From Yuukianura sp. NJ FZ-2021 (Eukaryota): a DNA stretch of 64,000 nucleotides. Below are positions 23,055 to 59,452 of the stretch, piece by piece. How positions within the stretch are numbered: position 1 is the first letter of the stretch; every line of letters starts with the position of its first letter. The notes beneath the pieces were generated by a model. The model did not search any database and was not told where the DNA came from. It was given only the letters and a program-made list of their open reading frames with translations. The position numbers and the translations under genes are program-made. Location: contig CM102284.1 in assembly GCA_046563655.1 (NCBI GenBank), positions 8,618,001-8,682,000 of the forward strand, in the 5' to 3' direction.

Positions 23055-23690
23055 ATGGCGGACACAGCAGTACCCACGAAGAAGAAGGCCCCGTCTGCTA
23101 AGCCGAAGGTGGCTAAGAAGGACAAAGCCCCACCAGAACCCACCCCCAAAGCCCCACTTGTGGCCAAACCAAGAGCCCTCTACAAACCAGGCAGACTCTA
23201 CGCCAAGTCCATCTTCACTGGCTACAAGCGAGGACTGAGGAATCAGCGGGAAAACACAGCTCTCCTCAAGGTCGAAGCCTGCAAAAACCAGGAGGAGGCT
23301 CGGTTCTACATCGGAAAACGATGTGCCTACGTATACCGAGTAAGTAGTCCCTCCATATAACCTTCAATTTACTTCAATGTATTCAAACAATTCATTTTCT
23401 TCAATTAAAAACTGATTTGTATGTTTAGGGGAAAGTAAAGCGGAGTATTCCTGGCCGAAGAGACAAGCCCAAAACTACAACCCGCGTCATCTGGGGAAAA
23501 GTGACTCGGACACACGGAACCTCCGGCTCAGTACGAGCCAAGTTCGCTCGTAACCTCCCTGGACAAGCAATGGGCCACCGTGTCAGAATTGTAAGACAAA
23601 GGAAAACATTGACACTGGAGAAGGGAACTTGCGAGGTCATTGAATCTGTTGTTTTGTTTGTTTCAGCTGATGTACCCATCCCGGATCTAA
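23055..23690 (+). CDS. RpL35A: 60S ribosomal protein L35a with Lys/Ala/Pro-rich N-terminal extension
   Basis: [63 protein letters not shown]; 5' UTR donor at ~22871. Confidence 0.97.
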
Positions 23691-25701: not shown

Positions 25702-26203
25702 AACTTCTTTCACTTAAAAAGAATACTGTTTTGTCTTTAGAAGCGATAGTACTAAATCCAGGACGGGGAGGGGTGGAACTGGAGACGTATTGAACGTACA
25801 CTTCACGATTTTGGCACGATACAAGTTTAACTAAAGTGTTGAAGGTTTTCAAGCCAGAACGTTTTCCGAGCGTTAAAGTCCTTGACACGACCTCACGCGC
25901 ATCAAGCTTCTTATGTTTGTTCAACCCTTGTTGTCCAGTTCCTAATATGACAAACAACAATCGGTTTTGAGCTCATTTGTTATTTGTACCACTTTTACTG
26001 TGAAGAAAATAACGATTACCTGTCGGTTCCACACCCACGATCCACACACTATGAAGTTAGCAGCACTCTCCCAATCCATACGAACAATTAACCCAAAGCA
26101 ATTCTGCTATCGAAGCTAAATTACAAGTTAATTAATTAACTTAATCACATAATTACTCTAAAAACTTCATAAAAACTAACTTGATTATTTATTTGTTTAC
26201 ATT

Positions 26204-26545
26204 TTCAAAATGAGTTCCCGCACTGGGAAATGTGTTGTCTCAAGTCCAAATTCTGTTGGAGGCTAATTCTAGGAAAAGGCAGAAGCTGCAGATGAGGTTA
26301 TCCGACTATTAAATCCTACTGCTGCTGGAACTTGAGACAAAGTGCGGGAAATCATTTTGAAATTAAACTAAAATCAAAACAGAAAAAAACAACAATTTTA
26401 TTTTTCAAATTCAAGTCTACTTTTTAGGAATTTAACGTCAATCGATTAGCGATTTAGCTTTAACGATTGTTCCTTGTAATCACTCTTCACACCATGTCAT
26501 CAACCACGACCGCCGGCGACATTGACTTGAGCAGTAAGTTAGTTT
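26204..26545 (+). promoter_or_regulatory. Palindromic promoter core plus first exon, copy 1 (BCS1L/MTX2 bidirectional promoter)
   Basis: Inverted arms TTCAAAATGA-TTCCCGCACT...TGTCTCAAG and CTTGAGACAAAGTGCGGGAAATCATTTTGAA; homologous to 40509-40822. Confidence 0.8.
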
Positions 26546-27569
26546 TATTGTAATTCTGGCGGGTCTCATAAGCTAAGCTGATGATTGGGAAATAAGAGAA
26601 TTAAAAACCTTTAGTTAGTTATCAACTTTGCAGATGATAACAATTTATGATGTTATTAGTTAACTAAATACTAATTGGCTGTGTTAAAGTGTGGGATCTG
26701 CTTTTTATTACTCTTTCTGTGTGTTTTAGAGGCGGAAAAGGAGCCTTGGACAGCGGATACAAAGCTGATTGTTCCAGTGGAGCTAAATCAAGTACTGGTG
26801 GCTGAATCTGCAGCCATCTTGGGTGTCTACGCCTTCCTTCGAATGACACATCTTCCCTACACCGTTGTGCAACTGCCAAATGCAGTAGCAATCAGCCCAA
26901 CAGGTACAGCACACAGCAGTTCACAGAACTAGATCAACATCTCAACTACCTATCTTTTGTAAATTAAACTAAAAATTGTCATTTGTTGATTTAGGAAAAG
27001 TGCCAGTTCTGGTGTGTGGGCAGTTTGTAGAGTCAGAGTTGGAAGCAATTGCTCAACTGGCTGCCAGTAAAGGCGTGACTCTCTCCGCACATTTAAATGT
27101 GAGTCAGAAGGCGGATCTGCGAGCTTACATGTCGCTTGTGCACAGTGTTCTGGAGAAAGCGTTGCTCTACTTCACTTGGCTCGACGATTTCGTGTATCAC
27201 AATGTGACGAAACATCGCGTTGGAAGTCCTTACAATTTCCCACTCAAAGTGCTTGTGCCATGGGTGACACGAAGGAAAGCAACTGCTCAGTTGAAGGGAG
27301 TCAAGTGGGCGGAGATGAGCAGTGACCAAGTTTATCGTGAAGTGGAGACTTGTCTCCAGGCTCTCAGTGAACGACTGGGCGAAGAGGAGTTCTTCTTCGG
27401 CAGCACTCCAACAGAACTGGATGCCTTGACCTTTGGCTATCTCTTCACCATGATCACTACTCCCGTCAACCCACAGAACCGATTCGGAGAATTAGTCAAA
27501 CAGCAAGGGAATTTGGTTCGTTTCTGCCAAAGAGTGGAGAATCTCTACTTTTCATCCAAGCAAAACTGA
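26494..27569 (+). CDS. MTX2: Metaxin-2; exons 26494-26533, 26730-26902, 26995-27569
   Basis: MSSTTTAGDIDLSK-AEKEPW, ISPTGKVP, QKADLRAYMSLV, GSPYNFPL, CLQALSERLG, PTELDALTFGYLFT; phase-1 junction is in frame. Confidence 0.93.
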
Positions 27570-27711
27570 CAGCATTTAACGGAATGATACTCTAGCTCTG
27601 TTTAATTAGTCACTTAATCTAGTAAAATTATGTCACGACAGACTAACTTAAACATTTTAAAAATGTGCGGAATTGCTTAAACTTTAGGCAAACAAAGTGA
27701 ATAGTAAACCT

Positions 27712-30700
27712 TTAGACATGTCGAAAGAAGTCCGGGTTACGCTCTTTCATTTCTTCTTTTTTCTCGGCCTTCCGTTGATCCAACAATTTCTCCACTTCTG
27801 AAGCCTCTGTTGTTCTCAGTGACCCAACAGAAATTTCAACTGGCTCCTCTTTTTCCTAAGCAGCACAAATACAAGCAAAAGATTAGTGAAACAGTTGAAA
27901 AATAGTTGAACAAAATATTTGAACAGCATTGTAGTTAGCCACGTTGTCTAAGCTTACCTTCTTGTCCTTCGTCGGAGACTTTGATTTCTCCCTGGGTTTT
28001 ATTTCTGTTGACCTCGCCGGTGACCTTGATTTCCTTGTCGTTAGCCTTGAGCGAGAGGATGACCTGGAGCGTCTTCTTGACCTTGACAAGGACCGACTTC
28101 TGGAACGCGTCCTGGATCTCGAATGTGCGAATACATTTCTCATCCGACTTTGGAATCTTCCCCTCCTTCCTCTGGGCGGTGCAGTGAGGAAAACACGACG
28201 AACTCTGTCAGTGCGTTCCTTGGCTCCTCTTGCGAATCTTCCTCTCCATCCACCCCTGAATCTTCTGTGTGCTGATCTACTTCTGCTCCTTCGTCCATAA
28301 GAACGCGACCTCGATCGGGAACGCCCTCTGAAAACAAAACACACAAAATGGGTAAGTACTGCATTTTCAGCGTATTTTTTAGTAATTCATTTCGTCCCGC
28401 AGAAAATTCGGTATACTTTTGGAACCGAAAAACTGCGTTGGCTGTGATTTTTGTTGGACGAAACGGAGTTTTAAAACGAGAATATTTTTTTGAATATTTG
28501 GGTGATTTACCTATTGGAGTGTTTAAACGGACGTCGTCGTTGTTTGGGTGAGCGAGATCTGGACCTTGAAGAAGATCCAGATCTGGATGAATTTGTGCGA
28601 TAGTTTCTGTGTTGTTCCCTGCCTGGCTGGGTGGACCCTTGATGAAGGGGCTGAGGGACATACAGCGTCCCTTGAGGTGGTTGAATGGAAGATCCGAATG
28701 GAGGCGGAGGTTTGTCTTTGACTTTTCCATCCAGACGAGTCACTGTATAAGTAGGATTGGGGTCCCCGATCTTCCTCCACTTCGAGTCTCCTTCTCTCCC
28801 TTCCTTCTTCGTTCCTTCTTCAGTGATCCCAGGCGCCACTGGCACCAATGGCTGCGTCTGAGAACGAATCTTCATCTCAAATTTCGGCTTCACCTCTTCC
28901 GGTTGTCCAGGATTCAAAATTGTGCGAACACTAAAAAACAGAATGAATATTAATATTGGACGACAAGATTAGCAAATTGAAATGCATTCGAAAACGGCAA
29001 GTTGAAAATGAAAATTGGACTCACATGGTTTGAGAAGTATCGTTCAGAAAGTTTCCGTAGACGTCCGTCCTTAGTTCAATTTTTCCTGATGGAGGAATTC
29101 CGCCTTGCCTTGACTTGCTTCCATCCGAAGAAAAAGAAAGTCTGCGGAAAAGTAAAAAAAAAAACAGTCACAGTCAATAATTTTTTTTGGTGAAACGTCT
29201 GTAAACCTTACCTAAATTCCTTTAAAGATTCCTCGTCTGTCCTTGCATTTCGTGACGAAAAAGCGGAATCGCTGGTGGGTAAAACTCGTGTTACAATTGG
29301 TTCCTTGCGCTCCGATTTCTCCGTGTGCGAATCCAGCGGAAAACTCAAATCTCTTCTGACCACTTGAACAGTGGAGGGTGGATGCGGCTCTGCAACTTCC
29401 TTGATCTTCTCTTGCTCAACTTTGGAAAAATACGCACTCAGTTTAGCCTCCAAGTCTCCCAAGGCCTCAATTGAACTGTACACAAATCAACAATTTGAAA
29501 CAATTCTATCACAATTGGAGTTTTAAATCTTACGCCTTCTTCTTCTTTTTGGACTTTCGATCAGAATCTGAAGAAGAAGAGGAAGATGAAGACGAGGAGT
29601 CTGAAGAGTGTCGTTTCTTGCGACGTCGTTCCTTTTTCCGCTTTTTGTCAGACTCTGCAGAAGACTGGAGTTTAGTCGTGCCCCACCCTTGATCTTCTCT
29701 TGTTGGAATGATGTTCCCACTCCCTTCAGCCAATCGTCGGGAAAACGGACTCAGCGCTTGCGCTGATCCAACAGCAGGACTCTCCTCTTTTTTGGATTTC
29801 CTCTTCTTGCTTTTCCGCTTCTTCTTCTTCTTTCTCCCTTTTTCGTCTGAATCTGAAGACGAAGTACTTGAGTCTTTCCTCTTCCGACTTTTACTGTCAG
29901 AGTTCACTCCAGTGACAGGAGACTTCAAATCCGTAGATAGAAAAGTCTTAATTTTTTCCTTGAGGTCAATCACTCTGCCCCTCTGCAGGGGGTTCAATTT
30001 AGTAAAGTCCACTTTTTCATATCGAGAGTAGATGGCCCACAGAGCGTCTTTCGCTTCTTGATGATCTGGTCTCAGCGTCAAGCACTTTCCGTAGCTCCCC
30101 ACAGCTTCATCAGTCTTCCCCCCTTCCTCCTGCCTGCCAAATCAAAAAGAATGTCAAGTTAGAATCCTGAATTTTTGAATTTCCAAGTTGGAATCTTGAA
30201 TTTTTGAGTTTCCAAGTTGGAATTTTGAATTTCTGAACTTCCAAGTTCAAAAGTAAGCTTACTGTTTGCCGAGAGCCACGAGAGTTTCGGCCAAGTACTT
30301 GGTGGCGTTGTAGTGGTTGGGATTGTGCTTGAGTGCACTTTGGAAATCGTCAATTGCTTTGTCATATCCTCCTTTGTTTGCATATCTACAACAAAAGAAA
30401 GAGCATGAGAACACTAAATATTGTAAGTGCTTACTCTTATGTCAACTGATGGAAGCAGCAAGTTGTTCCTCTCCTTCGGCATACTTCATTAGTCTTTTGA
30501 GTGAATTCCATGATGAAGGAAAGACTTTAAATGAATGTTCGTCTGAGAGACAAGGATTAATCAACACCCCATCTTCACCAATTACTCAAAACAACAAATA
30601 GTTACTCACAGTGCACCTCGAGCCACGAGACCCTCTACGTTCTCAGCGTCAATCGAAAGGGCTTTGTTGAGGCACTGGAAAGCCTCTGTTAAATGCCCAC

Positions 30701-32369
30701 TTTTGAAATGGCGGATTCCTTCTGCCACGTTTCCATGCGCCCACTTCCCATTCTGCTGACGACGCAGGAAAGAGGCTGTTTCAGACTCTGGGAAGACTCC
30801 GCTGAGAAAAAAAGAAGATGGTGGAAAGTTGTTGAATTGAAAGTAAAGTGGAGATTACCGAAGTCCAGTCATCATCGTGTTCCGATTGTTCAGAATCCCC
30901 ATCTGAGAAGCCAAACAAGCGATTCCATTCGGATTATGGAATCCATGACTAGCATCCAGCAGTTCTTCGTAACTTCGTTCCAATTTTAGTTTTCGTTCTC
31001 TCGCTCCAATTCTGTAAACACAAACATAACACATTAAATTTGGATTAAATTAAAAAAAAAACAATGAAAAATGTAAAAAGTTTCATCAGTGTTATATTTT
31101 CCTACTTTTTTATATTTCTTAAACATGAAAGTTTTGGCTAGGCTTTCATGCCATATGAAAAATCATCAATTCTAAAATCGGTAAAAATGTGTCAAATGCA
31201 TGGACTGAATTATTTTAAATTTCAACTGGCGTTAAAGTAAAAATTTTAACTTCAAATTAAAAATGTAACTTTGTTCAATGAAAAATTGAAAGAAATTGGA
31301 ATAGAAAAAGACGTTGTGAAACGTACTTGTAAGGAGTTGGGTTGTCGCAGTCCAAAACCAATCCAAGTTGAGCCGAATGCTTCATTTCCATTGAAAGTGC
31401 ATTCCCCTTCATCCCCACCACAACTTTCTCCCCTTCCAGTTTAACTGACAGAATTTCCAGCCGAACGAGATCTCCAGGTCCAAATATTTTGTTTGGATTT
31501 GCAGGATGGATGGCAGGGATCATCTGACTCACAGGACAGTAGCCCTTGATGTCCAAGTCCTCCAGGAACAAAGACCGACTGCCCTCCATCGAAAGTAGAG
31601 TGAAGGAGAGCCCTGTGGCTGTTTTGGAACAAAGTTCACCCACAACTATCTCGCCTGGCTGAGCAGTCTGGAAACACAAACAGGATTTATTAATTCCGAT
31701 GATTCTGGAACTTTTCCGGAATAAATTGAATCTTACGTTGAAAAAGTGAGAGCGTCGAGCATCTACTTGGCTTTTGAGGAAAAAGTCCAATGAAGGCGTA
31801 ACTCCAAAGTGATCTGTCCAAGTCAGTTCAATTACCTAAGACTTTTCTTCAAGTGTTCCATTAAAATGTACCTTTGGTGTTGCCCTGAACCCCTCTCTCC
31901 AGAATTGGAATTTCGTCTGAACCCAGCGGCCGGAACAGCAAATCTCTCTTTCTGGACACAAATTCGTGCATTTTGGAACGTAGCAGGGCACGATCAGATC
32001 TAACAAAATCCACCATTAAGCGAAGTGAAGAAACTGTTGAGAATCTTTGGCCTCCACTAGCAACCTTAGTTTGTAAAACGTGTCACGATGGCCCAAAATC
32101 TTTCTTTCATCATGGAACCAACTTGGACATGGTCAGAATTGAGTTGAGTAAAAAGAGAAAAGAACTGACCCTGCGTCCAACTGGAGGACTGATGTTGTGA
32201 ACTCTGGAATTCGTGGAGATGGTGACGTGAGGAGTGACCCCCATCCCGATACGAGGCTAGTGCCAGAAGAACCACTTCCATATCCAGCGTATCCTTCACT
32301 CCCCCCATTCCCTTCACTTGCTCTGGCTGTTCTGTTCTTGAGAATTCCCTTCGGAGGGCCACTCGACAT
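27712..32369 (-). CDS. TTC14: Tetratricopeptide repeat protein 14 (S1-like domain, TPRs, long RS-rich tail)
   Basis: HEFVSRKRDLLF, S1-like region (GEIVVGE...LVRLEILSVKLEGEKVVVGMK), TPRs ([29 protein letters not shown]), RS-rich exons 27950-28900; start codon tentative. Confidence 0.88.
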
Positions 32370-33235
32370 GTTGGACTACTGCGGATACCACAAATAACAC
32401 TACCGTCAACTTCTCATTTCCAACAGAACAAATAAACTGAAGAGGGCTAACGTCGTCGCTTACCTCCAAGCCAAAACTTAGACGAGTAGAGTTGAGTGAT
32501 CCAGAACGTGATGACACGTAAACCAAACGTTCTGAAAGCTCACGATTGTTGACTGTGGATCCTTGAGCTCCGAATTCCAGTATTTCCTACACGCCGGAAT
32601 AACTTGTATCGATTCTTTCTTTGGAAAGGTCCTACGCGGCGTAGGCTACGCCTACCCTACCTAAAAACAAGTGTAAAAAAATACTTTAGAACACATTGAC
32701 CTTGTACAATTTTAGTCAATTACTTTCCCCACAACATTGCTTACCAATTTAATTGTTAAAACACTTATCGCTTTCACACCTCTAATTACTACAAACTAAT
32801 TAATTTAAATCAGTAACTAACATCGCTCACTTTTTTGATTGTTCACAAATTACTTTTTGGACTTGTGTTTGTCTAACAGTTCCTTGCACTTCCGCCCCAA
32901 AATACATACATGGGCACAACTAATAAAACAATTATTTAACATCTATACTCTTTTAAATTAATGACAAAGAAGCCAAGAAATTACAGCGTTATTTTTTGCC
33001 GTCGTTGCTGACTTTTGAATTCTATTTGTTTTTGGAATTCATTTTACTAAATATTTCAAGCTGATTTGTAAAAGAAGCTTCAGAATGGTGTTTTTAAATA
33101 GCGTTAAATCAGGAATTCGCTGATATAGCTACATACTCCTCCTGCTTCCTTTTAATGCAAACGTGTTTGAAATTTAAACAAATATTTGTGCATTTATATG
33201 TTTGTAAAACTTGTTGAATTTTTGCCTTGGATGTA

Positions 33236-34347
33236 TGAGGGGAGATCGACTGCTTTTCAACGCGATTTGCTGCAAGCTTTTTTTTTTTTAAAAAACACAA
33301 GTAAATTTCCTTGCAGAAAATCAAAGCGAACATTTTCTGCAACTTTTTTTCTTGCAGAAATCAAGACTTTGTTATAAGAAGCTTGCGGAAAATCGAGGAG
33401 CTGTTATAAAAAGCTTGCGAAGAATCGAGCCGCTGTTATAGGAAACTTGCGGAGAATCGAGACGTTGTTATAAATTATAATTCACTTTTAAGATTTTACG
33501 ACAGCTGAATTTTCCCAAGTTAGAATTCCTCGAAAAGTAAACGTAAAAGTTATATTTTGTCAAAAATTTTTGTCACGTCAAAAAGTTAGAGAACAGGTCA
33601 ATTTTTCACGAGACCAACATTTCAAGACGGTAGAGTACGCGTGAATCCTCGGCAAGGCAAATACATCCGAAACTTGAATTTCAGCTGAATTTTTCAAAAT
33701 TCCAATTCCTCAAAAAGTAAGTGTACAAGTGAATTTTTAAAAATTTGGTCACGTCAAAAAGTTAGAGAGCAGGTCAATTTTTGACGAGACCAACATTTCA
33801 ATACGGTAGAGTACGCGTGAATCCTCGGCAAGGCAAATAATTTAAAAGTTGAATTTCAGCTGAATTTTTCAAAATTCCAATTCCTCAAAAAGTAAGTGTA
33901 CAAGTGAATTTTTAAAAATTTGGTCACGTCAAAAAGTTAGAGAACAGGTCAATTTTTCACGAGACCAACATTTCAAGACGGTAGAGTACGCGTGAATCCT
34001 CGGCAAGGCAAATACATCCGAAACTTGAATTTCAGCTGAATTTTTCAAAATTCCAATTCCTCAAATTTTTCGCATGTTTCTTATAACAACGTCTCGATTT
34101 TCCGCAATCTTTTTGTAACAACGCATCGATTTTCCGCAAGCTTTTTATAACAACATCTGGATTTTCCGCATGTTTCTTATAACAACGGCTCGATTTTGCG
34201 CAAACTTCTTATAACAACGCCTCCGTTTTCTGCAAGAAAAAAGCTTGTAGAAAATGTTCGTCCCTATTTTCTGCAAGGAATTTTTGCTTGTGTTTTTTAA
34301 AAAAATCTTGCAGCAAATCGTATTGAAATGCAGTCGATCTCCCCTCA
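33236..34347. mobile_element. Foldback-like non-autonomous element with ~240-270 bp TIRs built of ~31-bp subrepeats, flanked by TA
   Basis: TA|TGAGGGGAGATCGACTGC ... GCAGTCGATCTCCCCTCA|TA; arms ~33236-33472 and ~34070-34347. Confidence 0.8.
33502..34065. repeat. ~176-bp tandem repeat (~3.2 copies) inside the foldback element
   Basis: CAGCTGAATT recurs at 33502, 33682, 33857 and 34033 with near-identical intervening sequence. Confidence 0.93.
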
Positions 34348-34623
34348 TATGGAAGACATGCTGTTCCCAAAATAGAGCAACAAATAAAAAAAATTTGCAA
34401 AATATTGCAACAATTTATTCAGTTTTTACTAAAAATTGAATAATTAAAAATATAGTTAAAGATAAAATAATTGATCCAAATCTTTTCCTGGTGGAAGGGT
34501 TCCCAGGATTGAGGCGGAGTTCCCTCTAAATAAAAAAAATATTTCTGTGATGTCTGTTTTTGGTGTGAGGTTAGGGTTTGCCGGCAGGATTTTTTGTCAA
34601 ACCAACGGAATTGGATGAGTTTG

Positions 34624-34800
34624 TTTGAATTTGGCGCTTAGAAATTGGTGAGAAAGGGGGGCATGAAGATGTGTATTGTTTTTGGTGTATAGCGACGAAA
34701 GTGCTATGTTTTGAAAGAAATTGACTACATTGCCTAGTGTTGCAGGAGACATAAACAAACCGTTGGCGCCTATTCTCCCCCTCTCCAGCCAATCAGAGCT
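34624..34800 (+). promoter_or_regulatory. Cell-cycle-type promoter motifs upstream of cyclin B3 (TTTGAA, TTTGGCGC, CCAAT box)
   Basis: TTTGAA 34624-34629 abutting TTTGGCGC 34630-34637; AGCCAATCAG at ~34787. Confidence 0.45.
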
Positions 34801-35020
34801 CAGCATCCGTTGACATTTTGGCCGTTGAAAACCCGCTATCCGCTCTCCAGTCAGTCACCAACTACGAGCGAAGGGACAGGGACCTCTCCCGCATTTTACG
34901 ACAAAGTGACTCCTAACCTCTGACCTCCAAATTATTCACAATCATACTCTTCAACTACACCAAAAATATCTTTATTCACAATCACGCAAGTGCTACTCTC
35001 AATTTTATCAAGGCACAATT

Positions 35021-36746
35021 ATGTTTGGGAACAACACAAGGTCAGACCGCGTTCTACGCGCCTCCACCACTAGCAAGAGGAAGGCTGAAGTGTCGCCAGT
35101 CAAAGGACCAAAACGATGTGCTCTGGGCGACATTTCAAACAAGGGCAAAGGAACCTTCCCCCTGGGGTAAGTCTTTACAAAGTACCCTCAAGCTCAATTC
35201 ATTTTCAAAAGTCAAATCAAGTCATTAATGTCGCTTTTCAATGTTTTAGGGCGACGAACGCAACGAAAAGGAAAGTGGAGCCAGTCAAAAAGTCCAAAGC
35301 AGCATGTGGGCCAGTGAAGAAGGGAGCCACAGCCAAGGTGGCTCCAGTGCCGAAGAGTGACATTGGCTCTTCTGATTCGTCAATTTCAGTGTCCTCTGGG
35401 TCATCCCCTGCAGATGGAAACAGTTCTCTCTACACAACTGCTGCAGAACTTTCAGACTTGGAAACTACTCTGTAAGCTCAACTTCAAACATTGACTATTT
35501 CATACATCGGAATTCAAATGTTTATGAATGATTCTATTTATGTCCATACCATGGTGGGACACAGGGTCTGCCGCAGTTTGGACCCTTGACCTTAATTCTC
35601 TTTTTGTCTTGTTTTTTTTAGTCCTTATGTTGAGAATGTGGAGGATGGGCCTGTTGAAAAGGCTCTTCCCGATGGAGTGATTGACTACGACAAGGAGTGT
35701 GGCGATGATCCATTTCAAGTGGGAGTTTATGCTGCTGATATTTTCGAATACTACAAAAGACGAGAGTTTCAATTCCCCGTGACAAAGTACTTGGGAATGC
35801 AAGAGGGACTCAACAAAAGCATGAGAAGCATTTTGGTAGACTGGCTGGTGGAAGTGCAGGTAAGATTTTTAATCCTACCTTTTTAACTCCGGGGGTTACT
35901 TAATCTCATTTTCTTTTGTTTTCCAGGAGAGTTTCGAGCTGAATCATGAAACTTTGTATTTGGCTGTCAAACTGGTCGACCTCTTCCTCGGAAAAGTGCA
36001 AATCAAACGAGACAAACTGCAACTGGTGGGAACAGCCGCTTTTTGGATTGCATCCAAGTTTGACGTAAGTTCTTATTCAAAATGGGGCGAAATGGAGTTG
36101 TTACCGAGGAGATTCCTCTGTACTAGGAACGCATGGCTCCTTCAATTGACGACTTTTGCTACGTATGCGACGACGCCTACTCCTTGGCAGCAATTTTGAA
36201 GATGGAGGCAACAATTTTAAAAACTCTGGACTACGACATTGGGATTCCACTGTCCTACAGATTCCTCAGAAGATACGCACGGGTACTTTTCTCTCACTTC
36301 TTCCTTTGTTTCTTGTATTTGACTTTGATTTTTGTTTTCAGTGTGCCAAGTTGGACATGGAGATGCTCACTCTCGCCCGCTACGTTCTGGAAATGTCTCT
36401 CATGGAATATGACTTTATAGATGTTCTGGACTCTATGATGGCAAGTGCCTCTTTGCTAGTTGCTCTGTCCACACACAACATCAAATCTCCCTGGACGCCC
36501 ACTCTGGTTCACTACAGTGGCTACACACTCACTGACATCTTAGACCTCGCCAATCGCCTTCTCAAAATGCTCAAAAACCCACCTAACCAAGTGAAAACCA
36601 TCAAAGCCAAGTACTCCAACAGGCAAGTGACAATCACTCTTCAACTAAATCACGCAAATTGTCTCCTAAAATGTCGCTTCTTGTCTTTTTCCAGCGTGTT
36701 TTTCGGCGTGGCAAAATTGGCGCTGCCGGATGAAATCAAAATGTGA
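35021..36746 (+). CDS. CCNB3: G2/mitotic cyclin B3
   Basis: D-box RCALGDISN; cyclin box [59 protein letters not shown]. Confidence 0.94.
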
Positions 36747-37291
36747 AGAATTAGCCCCATTTGCACCAACATCCATTGTGTTCTATGTTTTTAAACTCAT
36801 AACCCCCCTCTAAGGGGTCTCAAATATCCTAATTAAGGGCTCCCTTTGAACAAGAAGTGAAGGGACTATTTTTATATTTTATTCAAACCATCCACAAAGT
36901 GTCTACGCAAATACAATCCCTCTTCCTACTGGATGGATTCAGTGTTTGCAGAGTAATTAACTAATTACAATTAATTGCTAAGGTCGCGTGTTAATTAGGA
37001 TTCAGTCCAGACTTTGTACAGATTGAGGGCTGAGTGGATTTATTAGGACGTTGTGTCGATATTTAAATATGTGGACTTATTTTTACTCTTTTTCTATAGT
37101 ATAAATAAACCCAAGTGTAGCATAACCAAGGTCAAAGGTCATGAGTATTCCTTTATTGGCAGACACTTGATAAATACTTGGGAGGTGGCTGGGTGTGGGG
37201 TGAGCAAAACAACGGAAAGTGAAAACAACCAACAACTTAATCATTAGGCAACAACTAATTAGAGTCTTTTGGAGCTACTGGAGGTCAGAGG

Positions 37292-38118
37292 TCAATTCCC
37301 CACCCATTTCCCCACTTTGTCCACGAGCGTGTAGGTGCAGTCGGGGAAGAGCGTCTGGCAGTCCTCTTGCTTGTCCCCACTCACCATCGCATCTCGGTAC
37401 AAGTCCATGCTGCGCATGCGATTTCTAAAAACAAATCAATTAATTAAACTTTAGATTTAATTAAACTATTTAAATTTTAAAATTTAGTTGATTCCAAGGG
37501 CACCTGAAGAAGTTGGTGGCATAACCGAAGATTTTGTTTCTATTGGCAGCTCGCTCCATCTCACAAGCCACTCGCTTCCGACAGCCGTCGCCCGAGATCT
37601 TCATGACTGCGAATGTCGTGTCGACGTAGTCAATGGAGTTGAGCACTTTGGACATGAGTCCGCCGTCTTTGAAAGTGTCAAAGTAGGGCGAAGTGGACTT
37701 GGCGGAGCGACTCCACCCATGTCCACCGTCGTCACCATGCCCACCGCTCAGCAGTGGCGACAACAACAAGTACACGAGACCACCAAAAGCAGCGAGGACC
37801 AGCAAATTCAGAACAAGAGCCACCACATCCGCCAGGGCTGGATACTCCCCTGGAAACAGAGCACAGTGAGCCACATTCAATAGTGAGGAGAGAGGACTTA
37901 CCATGGCCATAGCTGGTGGCTCCCTGCTCGCCCCACCCACCTCCGCCGTACCCACCACCATGTCCATGTCCCTGCCCCACCGTGAGAACTTCTGGGTGAG
38001 AGTTGTAGGACCCAATGCCCAGATCTCGCTTTTCGTTCGGAGACGTTTTGGTTTTGGTGGCTGCAGAAGCGACGGCTGCTAGGAGCAGCGTCAGCATCAC
38101 AATCCTACTCATGTCCAC
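37292..38118 (-). CDS. Arthropod signal-peptide protein with Gly/His-rich region, hydrophobic segment and DM4/DM12-like Cys motif (3 coding exons)
   Basis: Signal peptide MSRIVMLTLLLAAVASA; CRKRVACE ... DCQTLFPDC; canonical introns 37852-37901 and ~37426-37503. Confidence 0.75.
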
Positions 38119-39593
38119 TGCAAAACAATTGACTTTAAGTGAGAGAAGGGAACCTTGGAGTGTGTGTGCGTGAGTGGAGCGATGTCGGTGGACTAGTGGG
38201 TCGAGAGTTGAGTGGTCACCGAGTGGACATGCTCTGGTGACCTTGTGGGTGTTTAATTGCTGCGGGGCAATTAAAGAACAGGGTCAGCGGGGGTGAAAGA
38301 CAACGGATCTCGAACCAGTCAAACCGGAAAGGTTGTGCCCTCAATCTCCCACCGAACCGCAACAGGTCACCCACTCACACACACACAAGGGGAAAGTGAG
38401 GAAGGCACTGCACTCTTTACCTCGTTTGACCTTGATTCCTGAGGAGACTACTGACGTGGGCACTGCGTTCCAACAGAATGGGGCCCTTGACCGTCCGCCC
38501 AATCACTTTTATATCAACACGTCCCCACTCTGCGCAAACGCCAACTGGGTGGGCAGCCATGGGGGGATGGCGACCAGCCACAGGTTCCCCCTTACAAACT
38601 TTACCTCAAAACCTTGATTTCAAAACAACCTCAATTCCACCATTCCCACCCAAATCCACTTTCACTACAACTTCCGCCAAATGCCCACCACCAAACTACT
38701 TTGCACAAACATTGTCAATTACAATTTACACAAGTTTTATTCATTTTTTACATAAGACTTAAGGGCCCTGAGTGGAGAGTCCTGCGGACAAGGTCTGGTC
38801 CACTAAACTTATTCCTTGTCATAAATTTAGGCTTAGGTGACTTCCCTTTCTCATTTTTTGTACATTGTGCGAAAAAGAAGAAGCCTTTGGCCATTTCCGG
38901 TCCTTAAGAATGTGGAGCAGAGAGGAAGAAAAGTGGAAGTTGAATGAATGGTGGAGTGAGAGTGGCTTAATTGGTTTGATCAAAGGAGGAGAGGAGGTCA
39001 AGTGAGTGACCTCGAATGGGAAACCATAATCCATTACTCCCACTTTCCCTTGCACTGCCCAGGGGTCACAGAGGTCACTGCACACACAACTGACCTTGTT
39101 GTGAAGGACCCACGAGCATCTTCGACCTGAGCCACTCCACTGCCCCATCACTCCATCAATCAACTAATTAAAAACTCTTCTCAACTTTTCAGAGCACAGA
39201 CTTTCATTTTTGAGGAAAGAGAGGAGGTCAATTAATTGGACTTTGGTCACTGAGTGTGGTGGGACGCTATGCCCCACCGCAAAAGAGGAGTGAAGTAACT
39301 CAATGTCAATGACCCTCAATTTCACTTGGTGTCTCTTGTAACTTGACAAATGAAAGTTAATGGAGCTGTGGAAGGAGGTCATGCCACAGAATCCAGTCAA
39401 ACCACACTTCCTTCCTTTCACAAAATGACTTATGAGTCCCCCCAGTGGAAGTGGCAGCATAATCCGCCTACATTCCACTCAAGGGAAAGAGGGCAACTCC
39501 GCTTTCCAATCTAACAGCTCAACTTGTAACTTAGAATGATCCTTATGTAATAAACTAACGTTCGTAGAACGTCGTCACTCCACACATATTGGA

Positions 39594-40339
39594 CTACATG
39601 AGTTTGGGTTTCTTGGAGTCTGGTTCTCCAGTTGAAGCTGGACTTGGGGTGGTGCGTAGTGGTGGTCCACTTGGTGTTTTGAAAACTGGATGAGAAGTTG
39701 TAGAAGTGATGGTGGTGCCACTGACGAGTGAAGGATAGCGTGAACTGGCGAGTAGTGTACTTCCAGCGATTGCTTTCCGGTAGAACTGGAGTTGGTAGTT
39801 GGGCTGGGTTAGACAGAAACGATCTGGAGGCAATCGTAGGCCAGACGTTGCTTTCAACAGAGGCAGAGGATTCTGGTTCTTGGTTTTGGCCAATTCCAGC
39901 AGCATCTGGAAATAGACAGATTCAGTATTCAATCTTTAAGTTAAGTTAAGCCTATGAACTCACATCTCTTGGTGGGACTGTTGAGTAGGTCTTCCCTCCG
40001 AGCACTTTGACTGCCAATTTGATGTCTTCGTTGTCAATGGACTTTTTCTTTCCATACAGAGAGTAGACTCTCGCCTCTTCCGCAACACCCGTCACGTAAC
40101 CTTACATAAGAAGAGTCATTAGAATGATTTTGTATTTTGGAGTGGATATTTCAAGATTTGGAGTAGTTACGGTAGACGAATTCGTGCATTTGTGCGAGGA
40201 TGCGAACGTCGAAGAGATTGATGCCCATTTCCCTGAGCATGGACTGCATGGCCAGTATGTCTCTCGGCACCATCTTCCCCGGTGGGGCTCCAATGCTCTG
40301 CACTCCGCTGCTCCCTCCAGTCCCACCTCCACTCGACAT
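39594..40339 (-). CDS. TAF9: TFIID subunit 9
   Basis: Histone fold [15 protein letters not shown]...[17 protein letters not shown]...[50 protein letters not shown]. Confidence 0.94.
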
Positions 40340-40508
40340 CTCACACGCCAACCAGTCAATCAACCCTCTATGATCACCAATTACCCAATGTCTCCTGCAA
40401 ATTAATCAATCAGCAAATCAACGATTAACACAAACTTAATAAATCAATCCACAGGAAACTAGAAATAACAAAACAAAATGTAAACAAAGAAATTAAATAA
40501 TTAAAACG

Positions 40509-40822
40509 AACTTACTGCTCAAGTCAATGTCGCCGGTAGTCGTGGTTGATGACTAGATGTGAAGAGTGATGCCAAGGAAAGAAAGGAACAATCGATAAAG
40601 TTAAATTAATAATTGATTGACGATTGATAGAATTAATTGTTTGTTCTTCTTTTGATTTTGGTTTAATTTCAAAATGATTTCCCGCACTGGGAAATGTGTT
40701 GTCTCAAATCTAAATTCTGTTGGAGGCTAATTCTAGGAAAAGGCAGAAACTGCAGATAAGGTTATCCGCCTATTAGACCTTACTCTGCCTTCACCTTGAG
40801 ACAAAGTGCGGGAAATCATTTT
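40509..40822. promoter_or_regulatory. Palindromic promoter core plus 5' UTR exon, copy 2 (TAF9/POLA1 bidirectional promoter)
   Basis: Core 40668-40822 aligns with 26204-26361 in the same orientation; 40509-40690 is the reverse complement of 26341-26545. Confidence 0.8.
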
Positions 40823-41145
40823 AGAAGGAGGCAAAAATCAACATCAAATTCAAAACAATAGACAAAAGATGCTGAACTGAAAGGCAAAAGGCGAAAGCAC
40901 TGAAGAAACGTAAGTTATTTATAATCAATTAATCTACTACCATAAAGAACCAGCCCATCGACAACAAATTTAGAAGAGTACATAGTGAAAAGAACAAAGA
41001 AGGTAAGACTTTAACTTGTTGGATGCTTGATTGTTCATGTTGTGAATTTGATGCATTGACATTGACGATAGTAGTTGGTGCTCTCTGTTGAATTCAAAGG
41101 TCGTAGAGAGGTGCTAAGTAACGGAAGGAAAGAGAATTGTGGACG

Positions 41146-44100
41146 ATGAGTGACAATGGTATGCATTTTACCCTTGCATTGCATTCATTTACTCACTTCC
41201 TCACTAATTTTCTCTCAATTTTGTTTTGAAGATAATGGAGCCGACGATTCGGTGGGTCGAACAAGGGGACGAAGGTCCAGAACAGACAGAAGCGGTCGGT
41301 CAGACGCCCTGGAACGACTCAAGAACGTTCGTGCCGGAGGAGGGAAGCACAAATACGAAGTGCAAGAGGTACAGAACGTGTATGACATCGTGGACGAAAG
41401 CACTTACTCCCGAAGAGTCACTGATCGGCAGAAGGATGACTGGATTGTGGATGATGGTCAGTTTACTCCCCTTGTTAGGATACCAACCGAGTTTGTTTGT
41501 TTACTTCGCTCACCTCAAACACGGTTGGGGAGCACTGCATAAGGCGAATGTGTATAATGTTAAGAGATGGGAAATCCGGTGATCGCCGGATTGTGCATCG
41601 ATGCACAATTTTTGTTGAGCGAAGGATATTCTTCGTTCAGTGTACCCTCCTCTACTTTTTAGAAGTCCAGCAATGTTACGATTATGCTGCGTTAAGAATC
41701 TGAAGGGCTTACTTTTTCTTCAAGTTCTATAATCCAACAATAATAATTGTAGCCCTGAATTGGTACAAACATAACCGTAAAAGGGTTTACTTAAATTGTG
41801 GGTACAAGAGGAGTGCCTTATTGACGCCCAACCGGGGTCACTGGGAAACGCTATTTTGAATTTGTTTATTTTTTTCCAAACAATTCGTCAAATGCAGTGC
41901 TCCCAGAGTATTACTCCCCTTTCCCTTTGTTTTCATGTCCTTGGATTGCTCAAGTATGGTTGTGTTTGTGTAGGTACTGGAGACTATGTGGAGGATGGTC
42001 GTGAGATTTTTGATGACGATATAAATGACCGAGATGAGGAAAATGAGCGGAAGAAGCCCAAGAGCAAGAAGGAGAAGGCAGCCAAGAAGGCAGAGACAGA
42101 GATGCAGAAGGCTGGATTTGCAAATGTGCGTGACATGCTTTGTTCCATGCCGATCAAGCGAAAGCGACCAGAAGAAAGTGGAGGAGCTGAATCAGTTCGT
42201 CCTCAATTTTCGGGGAATGATTTGCTGGCAGAGGTGATGGGGGATTTGAAGATCAAGAAGGATGGACCAAGGTCGTCGCGTCCTGCCGCTGGATTCCGGA
42301 ACACAGAAGAGGAATGCATTGCGGTATCGGAAATGAAGGGACCGAGTATGAAGACTGAACCGAAGAAGTCCAAACTGGACCGTTTTGAGGAAATGGGCAG
42401 AAACATTCCTGCGAAGCGTGCCCGTTACACGATTAAGAAGAAGGTGTTTGTGCCGTTTGGAAGTAGCTCAACCGAACCAGCTTCTTCCTCCATTCCTTCG
42501 TCATTCGAACACGATGACCCCCCTCATCTTGACGATCAACTGGATATGGATTTTTGTGAACCTCCTCCGAGACAAACTGCTCCAGCATCAACATCTTCGA
42601 ATGGAAATGCTGGAGCAACCACTGGAACTTCAGCTTCCAGCAAGGTGAAGACTTTAAGTGTGTCCTCTTCACTTCCAGTGCCACAATCCAAACCAAAGCG
42701 ACACGAAACCATTACAGACAGCTTCCAGTGCTCTGGGCACATCAACAACGGAGGCACAACGCTCGAGGAACAGCCTAGTTTTGGGTTTGAGGATTCAACG
42801 CCTACTTTGTTCGAGGAAGGTCCGGATTCAAAGGTAGTCAGCACTCCAATTAACAATTATCAGAGTCTTTTCATTTGTTTCAATTTTAAAATCCTATTGG
42901 TTTTCAGATTTTGAACTTTTTTTGGTTGGACATGTTTGAAGAGCCTCGAAATCCTGGAGTGTTGTATGTTTTTGGTAAAGTAGAGTCTGGACCAGGGAAC
43001 TACTCGAGTGCATGCGTCGTTGTAAAGGATTTGTGTCGAAGTGTTCATCTCCTCATCCGAGAAACAATGGTAAGTCTCTTTTCAGTTGTAAAAAGGTTGC
43101 AATTTCAATTTTGTGTTGATTTGGATAGAAGTCGGATGAAGAAGTGTCAGTGACTGGCGTTGATGTTTACAACGAATTCAACCAAGTGATTGCTCCCAAG
43201 TTCAAAATCAATGAATTCAAGTCTCGTCCAGTGGACAAGTTGTACTGCTTCGACAATCCGCACATTCCGACTGTGGGCAAGTACATTGAAGTTCGCTATT
43301 CCGTAAGTCATTCCTTCTTTTTCTCAACTGCTGGACTCAATTGACTAAGCGATTTTCCTGTAGGGATCCCTTCCACCGCTGCCGGCTGATTTGGAGGGAG
43401 AGACGTTTTCACACATCTTTGGAGCGGGAAATCCACTCATGGAGAATTTCTTGCTGGATAAGAAACTGAAAGGGCCTTCCTGGTTGCAAATCCGGAATCC
43501 AGTCGAAGTCCAGTCTGCCCAGCGACACTCTTGGTGTAAATTTGAAGTAAGCCAGAAACCGGTTTCAGAATTTCCTTCATGAACTTAGACGTTAAATTAT
43601 GAAAATGACTTTCAGTTTAGCTGCAGCGTTGGTGATGTGAGACTTAACGACAAGAGCCACGAAATGAAGATTCCAACTGTAGTTCTGGCTTCCGTCAACA
43701 TTTTAACTGCGAGCGACGCAGAGTCGAAACGAGAAACGATAATTTTTGCAGGAGTTGCGGTTCACAAGGGATTTGAACTGGATGTTCCACTCAATCCGAG
43801 TCACCTCTACCACAACTACTTTTGTCGTAAGCCAACGTTAAGAAATGGTTAAGTAATTTCTGAATTAATTTATGTTTGTTGCAGTGGTAACCACACCAGC
43901 TTCTGAAATTTGGCCCTTGGACGTCGACGAAGCTTTTTCTCCAGAAGTTTCCAAAAACAACGCCACGAAAATGGACTCGGAAAGAGCTCTACTCGCCTGT
44001 CTGTTGGCCAAACTGCAGCAGATTGATGCAGATATTTACTTGGGCCACGATCTGAACTTTGAACTCCTGCTTCTGCATCTACTCAACCTCAAAGTGCAAC

Positions 44101-57165: not shown

Positions 57166-57474
57166 TGGCACTAACTCCCCAATTACATCAACACTTTCCT
57201 TACAAAGCAACAAACTCGACTAATTAGAAAAACAATATGGATTAAATTAAATTAATTAATTGAAAAAAGAGAAGTTGTGACTTTTGATCAGCTGTCCACT
57301 GGGATTCCACACTTGCGCACCAGTATTCCACTGGATGTACAATGAGTGATCCTCTCACACTCCAATCCTCCCACTATAGCTGGGCACAACCAAAATACAC
57401 TTTCGTAATAGGAAAAACTAATTCCAAAAAGAAACTAAGACATTGTTGGTTGCTTTGTGTTTAGTGTTAATTTA

Positions 57475-59209
57475 TGGGGGGAGATTTGCTGATAAACAAC
57501 AGGATTTTTTCGGCAACAGGAATACCAAAAAACGGGCAATTCCTGTTGCAGAAAATCCTGTTGCGTCAAATCGCGACAGGCAATTTCTGTTGCGAAAAAT
57601 CCTGGAAGCTAATTCCTGTCGCGAAAAATGCTGACAGTGAATTTCTGTTGCGAAAAATCCTGACAGCCATTTTCTGTTGCGAAAAATCCTGACAGTTATT
57701 TTCTGTTGCGAAAAATCCTGGTAGCTAATTTCTGTCGCGAAAAATCCTGGGAGCTAATTTCTGTCGCGAAAAATGCTGACGTCTAATTCCTGTCGCGAAA
57801 AATGCCGACAGTTAATTCCATGTAGAAAATCCTGGTCCTCACTTTCTGTTGCAAAAAAAATTTGAGATGTGTTTTTGACACCAGGAATCGAGATGTGTTT
57901 TTACATCCAGGAATATTGCTCCGCTTTACCAAGAGATGGCGTGAGCTGCACCAAATTGAATTCTACTTGCTTTAGTTACTTCTATTACACTCGTTCACAC
58001 TCAAAAACGTTGTTCTATTACACTTGGCCCCGCTCAAAAACGTTTTTCACATTTTAATTAATAAAATTAGTAAATTCTCCTTCTTTTTACTTTGTATGTA
58101 AGTGTACAAAGTACAAGACTTGACTTAGGTTATGTGTTGGTTGAGTGGCGCCACTCTATAAATGTTTTGGAGTGTTAAATAACAGTAGTTGTGTACTTTT
58201 ATGATTTTATTGTTCCCGGATCATAAATATTGGCGATTAAGAGAACTGAAGTTACTGTACGAGTTCAATATGGCAGATGGGAATACCAGAGCTACAGCGA
58301 CACAAATACTAACGCAGCTGGCTGATTTACTTGATTGAGGTATGATTATCGTACCCAAAATTATGATTAAGGGGATTGAACGGGTCTGGGGCGCATCCCC
58401 AGCAAGCATGCGCAGCATGCTTGTTTGGAACTAAAATTGCATAAAACGTTTTTCTATTACTTGGCCCCGCTCAAAAACGTTTTTCTATTACTTGGCCCCG
58501 CTCAAAAACGTTTTTCTCCAACACTTGACCTCTTGTACTTTGTACACTTACATACAAAGTAAAAAGAAAGAGAATTTACTAATTTTATTAATTAAAATGT
58601 TAAACGTTGATGAGGAGGGTAGCGCTACCCGTTTCGTAATATTGGAAGCTTGTGCGCATGCGTAGCATTACACTACTGCTTGAGTGAGATCGAGATGAGA
58701 ATTAGAAGGATAGAGCAAGTAGAATTCAATTTGGTGCAGTGCACGCCATCTCTTGGCAAAGCGGAGCAATATTCCTGGATGCAAAAACACATCTCGATTC
58801 CTGGTGTCAAAAACACATCTCAATTTTTTTTGCAACAGAAAGTGAGGACCAGGATTTTCTACATGGAATTAACTGTCGGCATTTTTCGCGACAGGAATTA
58901 GACGTCAGCATTTTTCGCGACAGAAATTAGCTCCCAGGATTTTTCGCGACAGAAATTAGCTACCAGGATTTTTCGCAACAGAAAATAACTGTCAGGATTT
59001 TTCGCAACAGAAAATGGCTGTCAGGATTTTTCGCAACAGAAATTCACTGTCAGCATTTTTCGCGACAGGAATTAGCTACCAGGATTTTTCGCAACAGAAA
59101 TTGCCTGTCACGATTTGACGCAACAGGATTTTCTGCAACAGGAATTGCCCGTTTTTTGGTATTCCTGTTGCCGAAAAAATCCTGTTGTTTATCAGCAAAT
59201 CTCCCCCCA
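57475..59209. mobile_element. Foldback-like element with ~500-bp near-perfect TIRs made of 21-22-bp subrepeats, flanked by TA
   Basis: TA|TGGGGGGAGATTTGCTG ... CAGCAAATCTCCCCCCA|TA; arms ~57475-57970 and ~58715-59209; second internal inverted pair ~58048-58118 / 58531-58600. Confidence 0.88.
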
Positions 59210-59452
59210 TAGTTGTGTGAGTAGCTGTTAGAGGGGTTTCAAAATAGAATAGAATGACGCATCCCCTTTTGACTTCAATTGTTTTTCTTTTTTTTTCCAG
59301 AGTCCACTGTTTATTAGTGAATTGGTGACAACTTCCGGTGAACATTGCACATCATTGTTTGTGGAAATGAGTGGGTGAGATTAAGAGTGAGTTTAAACAC
59401 TGGTCAACTGAGCAGAAAAGTAAGACTGGACTTTTGTGAAGGTAAAGCATAG

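Follow-up and report, generated by a model that had tools for sequence, protein, structure and literature searches.

How do two pairs of divergently oriented genes, 14 kb apart on the same chromosome, come to share a stretch of promoter together with a first exon, and would the shared exon be used at both places? The question arises in a 64-kb stretch of the genome of the springtail Yuukianura sp. NJ FZ-2021 (assembly GCA_046563655.1, contig CM102284.1), referred to below as the window. Blastn of the window against itself revealed that positions 26203 to ~26551 (copy A) are homologous to ~40499 to 40822 (copy B), as the first-pass annotation had claimed. In gapped blastn the homology is composed of a core aligning on the same strand (91% over 156 nt, E = 6.6e-48) and of a spacer plus exon aligning on opposite strands (81% over 119 nt, E = 4.6e-25); a third copy was not found in the window, the next match having an E-value of 0.067. 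A repeat search of the window recovered one direct pair (26188-26377/40652-40841; 190 nt, 84% ungapped) and three inverted pairs (26470-26547/40502-40579, 78 nt, 90%; 26341-26392/40637-40688, 52 nt, 90%; 26436-26475/40583-40622, 40 nt, 85%). With gaps excluded, the two copies are identical at 142/154 positions of the core, 66/76 of the spacer and 56/63 of the exon block, and the spacer alignment contains 38 gap columns besides. On one side the homology ends ~17 nt inside an intron (GTAAGTT[A/C]GTTTTA[T/A]T), on the other at the far, outer end of the core. These defined breakpoints and a similarity far beyond chance characterize a partial inverted duplication that includes a promoter and a first exon, an event of an already known type.

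Pfam matches place copy A between BCS1 (-) and metaxin-2 (+) and copy B between TAF9 (-) and DNA polymerase alpha (+), which agrees with the earlier assignment of both copies to head-to-head gene pairs. At the first locus, the start codons of BCS1 (25702-25700, -) and metaxin-2 (26494, +) are ~790 nt apart and thereby within the 1 kb that delimits bidirectional pairs. From core A (26203-26362, no strand assigned) towards metaxin-2 follow the A-rich spacer representing its proximal promoter (26363-26470, +), the conserved block of exon 1 (26471-26533, +) with the ATG at 26494, and an intron of 196 nt (26534-26729, +) of which only the first ~17 nt are common to copy B. Exon 1 encodes MSSTTTAGDIDLS and contributes one base to the codon that follows, and its donor CA/GTAAGTT starts at 26534. 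With exon 2 beginning at 26730 as (K)AEKEPWTADT..., the predicted join results in MSSTTTAGDIDLS-K-AEKEPW. The closest relative found, P0001, begins with MSSTAPSTRVDIDLNADREPW, and exon 2 (AEKEPW...) aligns from its residue 16 onwards (71% over 58 aa). By hand count, all 12 fetched metaxin-2 homologues possess 12-22 residues N-terminal to (K/R/Q)EPW, and a DID[LF] motif occurs within this stretch in four of the 12. The predicted exon join thus provides a metaxin-2 N-terminus comparable to that of its relatives, in line with the previous proposal of an exon carrying the start codon and spliced in frame; judged from these comparisons, it is the true, old first coding exon of metaxin-2. For BCS1 a non-coding leader exon ending at a donor GACAG/GTAATC is possible; since this putative exon ends near 26020, the transcription start of BCS1 would be located ~60-150 nt from the core.

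At the second locus, the start codons of TAF9 (40339, -) and DNA polymerase alpha (41146, +) are ~805 nt apart, again below 1 kb. Core B occupies 40667-40822 (no strand assigned), the spacer 40580-40666 (-; inverted relative to copy A and lacking ~28 nt present there) and the copy of metaxin-2 exon 1, which points towards TAF9, 40516-40579 (-). The metaxin-2 ATG is replaced by TAG (40555-40553), the frame reading a stop followed by SSTTTTGDIDLS, while the donor CA/GTAAGTT is intact (GT at 40515-40514); the common donor and the ATG/TAG difference are both as first described. Because the exon encodes the conserved N-terminus of metaxin-2 and its copy has TAG for ATG, the sequences identify the metaxin-2 copy as the parent and the TAF9-side copy as derived. 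A TTTGCAG acceptor (AG at 40396-40395) is found 121 nt downstream of the copied donor and 55 nt before the TAF9 ATG, and by eye the two sites delimit a putative T-rich 5'-leader intron of TAF9 of 121 nt (40395-40515, -). The predicted start of the TAF9 coding exon (40337-40394, -) consists of a 55-nt leader and the ATG at 40339-40337 (MSSGGGTGG...), and the exon matches the TFIID-31kDa domain. No ATG was seen by eye in the copied exon or in the predicted spliced TAF9 leader. On the other side, DNA polymerase alpha presumably begins with a start-codon mini-exon (41146-41158, +; ATGAGTGACAATG/GTATGC), assigned by eye and joining at 41232 to an exon that matches DNA_pol_alpha_N. As a side observation, the exon block (56/63) is kept no better than the spacer (66/76), and sequence conservation gives no indication of selection on copy B; two of the seven exon-block mismatches lie in the ATG, which could be chance (~0.3 for at least one, by a rough estimate).

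Our preferred interpretation, which we hold to be somewhat better than an even bet, is that the 5' end of metaxin-2 was duplicated in inverted orientation beside TAF9, that its core was flipped and that the copy now serves as a leader exon of TAF9. The copied exon would be promoter-proximal, its GTAAGT donor pairing with the TTTGCAG acceptor, and such a function is plausible from the arrangement of the splice signals. The competing view regards the metaxin-2-derived copy as an inert relic, a decaying pseudo-exon whose donor/acceptor pair is unused while TAF9 and DNA polymerase alpha rely on promoters of their own; we rate it as a serious though clearly less probable alternative. It accounts well for mismatches distributed alike over core (12/154), spacer (10/76) and exon block (7/63), for spacer indels spanning 38 alignment columns and for the lost start codon, and the sequence has no feature that requires selection. 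Against it speak the placement of the copy, which is correctly situated and oriented to serve TAF9 as a leader exon, the full identity of both copies over the final 21 nt of the exon and the 7 nt of intron that follow, the loss of any upstream ATG, and the lack, by eye, of a second good donor on the way from the copy to the TTTGCAG acceptor. Transcription of TAF9 might also start downstream of the acceptor, in which case the copy would be unused.

The core shows a peculiarity of its own. It is on the plus strand at both loci, whereas spacer and exon are on opposite strands, so that in relation to the exon the hairpin core has opposite orientations at the two loci. The same arrangement of core and exon is present at both loci in contigs of a second-study run (X5; 3 contig records). 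The original idea of a duplicated promoter and first exon is consequently to be modified: the segment was copied, but not as a simple module, the core being flipped relative to the exon. Both cores constitute long hairpins (RNA dG -62.9, z -6.4; DNA z -7.7 and -6.7), and in each case 0/200 shuffles folded as well, so that the inverted-repeat core previously noticed in both segments is borne out and the hairpin is retained in both copies. Core A is composed of outer arms of 22 nt, inner arms of ~13 nt and a loop of ~80 nt, ~160 nt overall, and carries in its left arm alone a bulge of 10 nt, GGGAAATGTG. Such a hairpin, very stable on either strand (z -6.4) and kept twice, might suggest a small hairpin RNA gene (a precursor similar to those of miRNAs or hpRNAs, or a structured RNA of another type) whose location in two promoters is incidental. 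We consider this highly improbable, as there are no Rfam matches at gathering score in the window, all eight matches obtained around the two loci at loose thresholds have E > 1, tRNA-like features were not found and compensatory changes between the two copies are absent. A stem of ~45 bp with a branched loop of 80 nt is, moreover, unlike animal miRNA precursors. A spliced-leader RNA gene was also considered and rejected, the homology stopping ~17 nt after the donor and an Rfam match being absent.

The core shares terminal inverted repeats and the absence of coding capacity with MITE or foldback elements, and a mobile origin of the core has to be weighed. According to this scenario, the core stems from a dispersed family and was independently present in both regions beforehand; a break at the arm of B would then have primed on the near-identical arm of A in the opposite sense and copied the spacer, exon 1 and intron start of A into locus B, in which case the flip needs no inversion. 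The homology indeed stops on one side precisely at the core's outer end, core and flank are oriented independently of each other and further foldback-type repeats are present in the same window. In some contigs core-like sequence is bordered by different flanks (loose ends at positions 40822 and 40644), and since such pieces exist, a mobile-element origin of the core retains some weight. Among the contig differences listed, differing letters are absent from the arms (40665-40706 and 40793-40822) and many fall into the loop. Yet by eye no target-site duplication flanks either core copy, whichever arm end is assumed, and the cores of A and B, 92% alike, resemble each other more than they do the remaining core-like contigs, whose alignments are partial, with 9-16 differing letters per 63-104 nt (5 records). 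Summed contig depth, which over the core bins ranges from ~0.7 to 6.8 times the flank value, suggests few copies only, although depth is not a copy number. We therefore regard this scenario as unlikely.

The contigs also bear on the concern that the whole segment might be a high-copy repeat spread regardless of promoters. Within the limits of DNA contig data, the exon part appears to be present in ~2 copies and the core in few, and the few core relatives elsewhere in the genome are diverged and align only in part; judged from this, the core does not appear to be a high-copy repeat. Exact-pattern scans of metagenome, genome and viral collections returned one chance match and nothing else.

For the preferred interpretation of a metaxin-2 duplication beside TAF9, we propose the following course of events. 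A piece of ~330-350 bp was duplicated, which extends from the ~160-nt hairpin core through the A-rich proximal promoter and coding exon 1 to ~17 nt within intron 1; its copy came to lie, inverted, at a distance of 14 kb in the gap separating TAF9 from DNA polymerase alpha. The whole segment presumably moved in one event, because the two cores (142/154 identical) agree at least as well as the spacers (66/76) and the exon blocks (56/63) do, and better than with the other, partly aligning core-like contigs. The hairpin interior would have been inverted during the duplication or later, by template switching or by recombination between the arms. That sequence enclosed by inverted-repeat arms may become inverted is described as an outcome of template switching (PMC8604942; PMC5453318, PMC8794818). 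In the cases these sources present, as here, short imperfect inverted repeats enclose an interior that is reverse-complemented between related sequences, the arms being near-perfect. Their arms mostly range from a few bases to some tens and enclose short spacers, whereas the springtail core has arms of ~45 nt and an inverted stretch of ~110 nt, deduced from two paralogous copies and not from a phylogeny.

What the flip would mean for promoter function depends on the symmetry of the core. The sequence TTTCCCGC, given as the E2F consensus (PMC5821395), is found seven times when both strands of the 64-kb window are counted, three of them in the two cores, compared to ~1.4 expected by chance from the base composition (our own estimate). 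In core A, GCGGGAAA, the consensus on the other strand, is found at 26344-26351, and the left arm provides a 7/8 match; core B contains TTTCCCGC at 40678-40685 and GCGGGAAA at 40808-40815. Candidate E2F sites, as judged by motif match, are accordingly situated near the gene starts at 26344 (-), 40678 (+) and 40808 (-). The near-palindromic core would offer one E2F-consensus site per arm (one only 7/8), one towards each gene, and might act as the centre of a bidirectional promoter in either orientation; if so, the flip would cost nothing. DRE-like motifs are present in the metaxin-2 spacer (aATCGATt around 26441) and in its copy (aATCGATA around 40591); an exact ATCGAT occurs just once per copy, and the two do not align with each other. 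The DRE is TATCGATA, and 6-7/8 matches count as DRE-like in the source (PMC2475616), which also describes DRE and E2F sites in promoters of Drosophila replication genes such as DNA polymerase alpha 180 kDa and PCNA. Similarly, the springtail DNA polymerase alpha starts within a few hundred bases of E2F-consensus and DRE-like motifs, but these are motif matches and the module also flanks two mitochondrial housekeeping genes. The predicted sites might be parts of something more general: the core could be a portable, orientation-free bidirectional promoter cassette that spreads at low copy among head-to-head housekeeping pairs of this springtail lineage by hairpin-primed copying and not by transposition, drags a leader exon along and rewires genes such as TAF9 and DNA polymerase alpha to a shared cell-cycle input. 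We judge this quite unlikely; if it were true, the other core-like contig pieces would also sit in promoters. Neither BCS1 nor metaxin-2 is known as a cell-cycle gene. MITEs bearing E2F sites are known in Brassica, and the core resembles foldback/MITE elements in being short and non-coding, in its long terminal inverted repeats with E2F consensus matches in the arms, and in occurring more than once in the genome. It differs from them in having no target-site duplication and apparently few copies, and from transposition alone in that the best-kept core pair has unique flanking gene sequence in common.

The gain of promoters and 5' exons by segmental or partial gene duplication is documented for the primate LRRC37 family (PMC3371713) and HYDIN2 (PMC5345166). 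As in these cases, a duplicated 5' piece of one gene has come to lie beside another gene as a potential donor of promoter and first exon. The primate pieces comprise tens to hundreds of kb, the springtail piece ~330 bp, and in contrast to them it is intrachromosomal, inverted, placed inside an existing bidirectional promoter and equipped with a flipped hairpin core, its use by the recipient TAF9 being putative.

If the copy is unused, the finding amounts to an ordinary small inverted duplication. The flipped core exemplifies how inverted repeats may both flag the breakpoint of a duplication and turn round the sequence they enclose. It amounts to a natural experiment that could show if orientation matters for a symmetric promoter element, and the module is small enough for direct reporter testing. 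If TAF9 uses the copied exon, the locus would be a compact and datable example of the acquisition of a new promoter and leader exon, in which TAF9 took up a few hundred bases of a gene lying 14 kb away, gave up the start codon they carried and put the donor to new use.

Both gene pairs are arranged head-to-head, as follows from their strands and from the start codons read from the sequence: BCS1 (ATG at 25702, − strand) is paired with metaxin-2 (ATG at 26494, + strand), and TAF9 (ATG at 40339, − strand) with DNA polymerase alpha (ATG at 41146, + strand), the ATG-to-ATG distance being about 790–805 nt in the two pairs. The four gene names proposed in the first-pass annotation agree with the Pfam assignments BCS1, metaxin (Tom37/GST), TFIID-31kDa, and DNA_pol_alpha_N and DNA_pol_B, respectively. 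The window is from a springtail (Collembola): a protein search matched the metaxin-2 main exon (26973–27569) to 138 of 238 candidate proteins at E ≤ 0.001, with an unnamed protein on top (86% identity) and Orchesella cincta metaxin-2 as the best named matches (64–65%). A ribosomal protein L35Ae gene (23055–23360, + strand) adjoins the 3′ end of BCS1, and a TPR-repeat gene (30606–30854, − strand) and a cyclin gene (Cyclin_N; 35596–36199, + strand) lie between the two homologous segments described below.

The gaps within the pairs contain homologous segments, as originally claimed and confirmed here by a repeat search and gapped blastn. Each copy, A in the BCS1/metaxin-2 gap and B in the TAF9/polymerase alpha gap, consists of an inverted-repeat core of about 160 nt (A, 26203–26362; B, 40667–40822), an A-rich proximal promoter piece referred to as the spacer, and an exon block, which is metaxin-2 exon 1 in A (26471–26533) and its counterpart pointing towards TAF9 in B (40516–40579). 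The repeat search of the window recorded a direct pair (26188–26377 and 40652–40841, 84% ungapped) and three inverted pairs taking in spacer and exon (85–90%). Likewise, gapped blastn aligned the cores on the same strand (91% over 156 nt, E = 6.6e-48) and spacer plus exon on opposite strands (81% over 119 nt, E = 4.6e-25), and found no third copy of either within the 64-kb window. When A(+) is aligned with B(−), spacer, exon and donor match but of the core only the arms do, whereas the alignment of core A(+) with core B(+) matches the whole interior; from one locus to the other, the core is therefore turned round with respect to the exon. The homology described in the first-pass annotation stands, with this one correction on the orientation of the core. 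The flip is also visible in a 10-nt bulge, GGGAAATGTG, which is found in the left (+) arm of both cores and is distant from the exon in A and adjoins it in B. With gaps excluded, A and B are identical at 142 of 154 positions in the core, 66 of 76 in the spacer (plus 38 gap columns) and 56 of 63 in the exon block; homology extends from the outer end of the core to ca. 17 nt into the intron. Both cores fold as long hairpins (RNA z −6.4; DNA z −7.7 and −6.7), a result equalled by none of 200 shuffles in every case. The arrangement of both loci is repeated in contigs of an independent DNA run from a second study. One of them joins the left flank of A to the core in + sense with 12 differing letters, which is the number separating core A from core B; another crosses the exon copy, spacer and left arm of B (1 differing letter, 1 gap), and a third runs from the right end of the B loop through the right arm into the flank on the polymerase side (2 differing letters).

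Exon 1 at locus A translates to MSSTTTAGDIDLS. Splicing from the donor after 26533 to the acceptor before 26730 combines one base with two into AAG (K), followed in frame by AEKEPWTADT. In the closest relative found, the N-terminus of which reads MSSTAPSTRVDIDLNADREPW, the match to exon 2 begins at residue 16 (71% over 58 aa). By our own count, residues precede the (K/R/Q)EPW motif in all 12 metaxin-2 homologues fetched (12–22 residues), and DID[LF] occurs N-terminally to it in four of the 12. The in-frame junction, the alignment with the relative and the N-terminal residues in all homologues show the exon to be an old part of metaxin-2. The TAF9-side copy reads *SSTTTTGDIDLS, with TAG in place of ATG, and the two copies diverge by only about 8–13%. 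The direction of copying is from metaxin-2 into the TAF9/polymerase alpha gap. The earlier proposal of a duplicated promoter and first exon is hence upheld, and given a direction, by the homology, the metaxin-2 N-terminus and the exchange of ATG for TAG. Its other parts, the capture of the exon by TAF9 and a joint control of all four genes, are putative, so that the proposal as a whole is supported in part.

The copied exon might serve TAF9 as a leader. It retains the donor CA|GTAAGTT, which is followed by 121 T-rich bases and a TTTGCAG acceptor 55 nt before the TAF9 ATG; inspection by eye revealed neither another good donor between the copied donor and TTTGCAG nor an ATG in the putative leader. 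The intact donor would be joined to the TTTGCAG acceptor, and we consider the chance that TAF9 uses the copied exon to be a little over one half. The divergence counts are so small that they demonstrate neither constraint nor selection on copy B. A spliced-leader RNA gene was considered on account of the shared donor and rejected because only two copies are present, conservation ends ca. 17 nt into the intron and Rfam offers no match (no family at threshold; all 8 loose matches at E > 1). Transfer RNA genes were not found either.

The abundance of the module was assessed by mapping contigs on 39900–41400 at 80% likeness; they came from four DNA runs, of which X1–X3 belong to one sample and X5 to the second study. 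The contigs fragment across the repeat. Some loose ends match the flanks of locus A (its intron at 40502, its left flank at 40667), others lead into different flanks at 40822, where the right arm ends, and at 40644, and several contigs match the right half of the core only, with 9–16 differing letters per 63–104 nt. The summed depth of the exon bin compared to the flank was 576 vs 249 (X1), 94 vs 39 (X2), 346 vs 288 (X3) and 6.9 vs about 2.7–3.8 (X5), and that of the core bins was 446–867, 117–269, 197–357 and 6–18, respectively; relative to the flank, this corresponds to ca. 1.2–2.5-fold for the exon and ca. 0.7–6.8-fold for the core, values which are not copy numbers, disagree between runs, including the three of one sample, and are to be read as “few, not hundreds”. 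We take the exon to occur two times and the core to have a small number of additional relatives, either more diverged or partial, without being a high-copy repeat. Among the differing letters listed for the contigs, none falls within the arms (40665–40706 and 40793–40822) and many fall within the loop. Exact scans with a 27-nt pattern gave no matches in genome or viral contigs; a 22-nt arm pattern matched a single locus in metagenome contigs, which was rejected as a chance match since only the 22-mer is common to an otherwise unrelated, purine-rich contig. E2F-site-bearing MITEs occur in plants; our search of a literature library for E2F binding sites in amplified MITE transposons returned none. 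A target-site duplication was not seen by eye at copy A or B.

Two low-depth, B-like contigs were also recorded (flank depth about 250–290). One from X1 (depth 17) extends over 234 nt from the intron start through the exon copy and the spacer to the left arm, at 19 differing letters and 17 gaps, and one from X3 (depth 8) covers 40462–40579 only. They may stem from a haplotype that is rare and diverged or from a related organism present in the sample, in which case the duplication is older than that split. Every covering contig of the three same-sample runs reads C instead of T at 40103 and A instead of C at 40105, and inserts an A after 40918; the window thus differs from those reads in haplotype, individual or assembly. 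One of the three runs has a 7-nt insertion after 40875.

Other repeats of the window comprise a near-perfect inverted repeat (57473–59211) with 390-nt arms, 99% complementary and 959 nt apart, built of 29-nt tandem repeats in a foldback-type transposon architecture. A tandem-repeat complex between copies A and B (33234–34349) contains three 170–176-nt units (98–100%) and four 32-nt units, which together form an imperfect inverted repeat with arms of at most 132 nt (75–83%). A 162-nt tandem repeat (2332–2817; two units identical, the third 80% alike) has a 65% relative 2 kb upstream (298–459).

With respect to the origin of the flip, a single duplication would suffice if template switching or recombination between the arms turned the core interior round, either at the same time or later. 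Template switching has been described to invert the stretch between inverted-repeat arms and to homogenise the arms (PMC8604942). Alternatively, cores might have been present at both loci beforehand, so that a broken B arm primed on the mirror-image A arm and copied the A flank; however, core A resembles core B more than either resembles the other core-like contigs, and we therefore prefer the single duplication with inversion. Fold-back priming at the hairpin, producing a palindrome of which one half survived, was rejected as unsupported, since a search for remnants of a second spacer plus exon on the far side of B found none. Such a palindrome, decayed at B from exon-spacer-core-spacer-exon, would have made the first leader exon of polymerase alpha the second copy. 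In five local alignments, each compared with 500 shuffles, the observed score was reached by 219 shuffles for the B right flank against spacer plus exon of A and by 46 against those of B, by 117 for the A left flank against those of B, and by 218 for the comparison between the two far flanks; the A left flank against spacer plus exon of A (18 of 500, uncorrected for the five tests) reflects an AT-rich 29-nt match.

The core arms carry TTTCCCGC/GCGGGAAA, described as the E2F consensus (PMC5821395), with exact sites at 26344, 40678 and 40808, out of seven in the window; the left arm of A holds a further site matching at 7/8. One such site per arm would place one candidate E2F-type site in front of each gene of each pair, ca. 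20–150 nt from the apparent leader exon starts. Both spacers also contain a DRE-like ATCGAT; the DRE is TATCGATA, and 6–7/8 matches count as DRE-like in Drosophila promoters, including that of DNA polymerase alpha (PMC2475616). Each spacer has exactly one ATCGAT (26441 and 40591), at different aligned positions (A CAATCGATTA vs B CAATCAATTA; B TTATCGATTG vs A TTAACGATTG). This shift looks like binding-site turnover, an anecdotal resemblance given n = 2 copies.

Promoters and first exons gained by segmental or partial duplication are described in primates for LRRC37 (PMC3371713) and HYDIN2 (PMC5345166). Compared to these, the springtail case is small, tidy and from an invertebrate, and has the flipped hairpin as an extra feature. 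The almost palindromic core should work either way round, which would fit a harmless flip.
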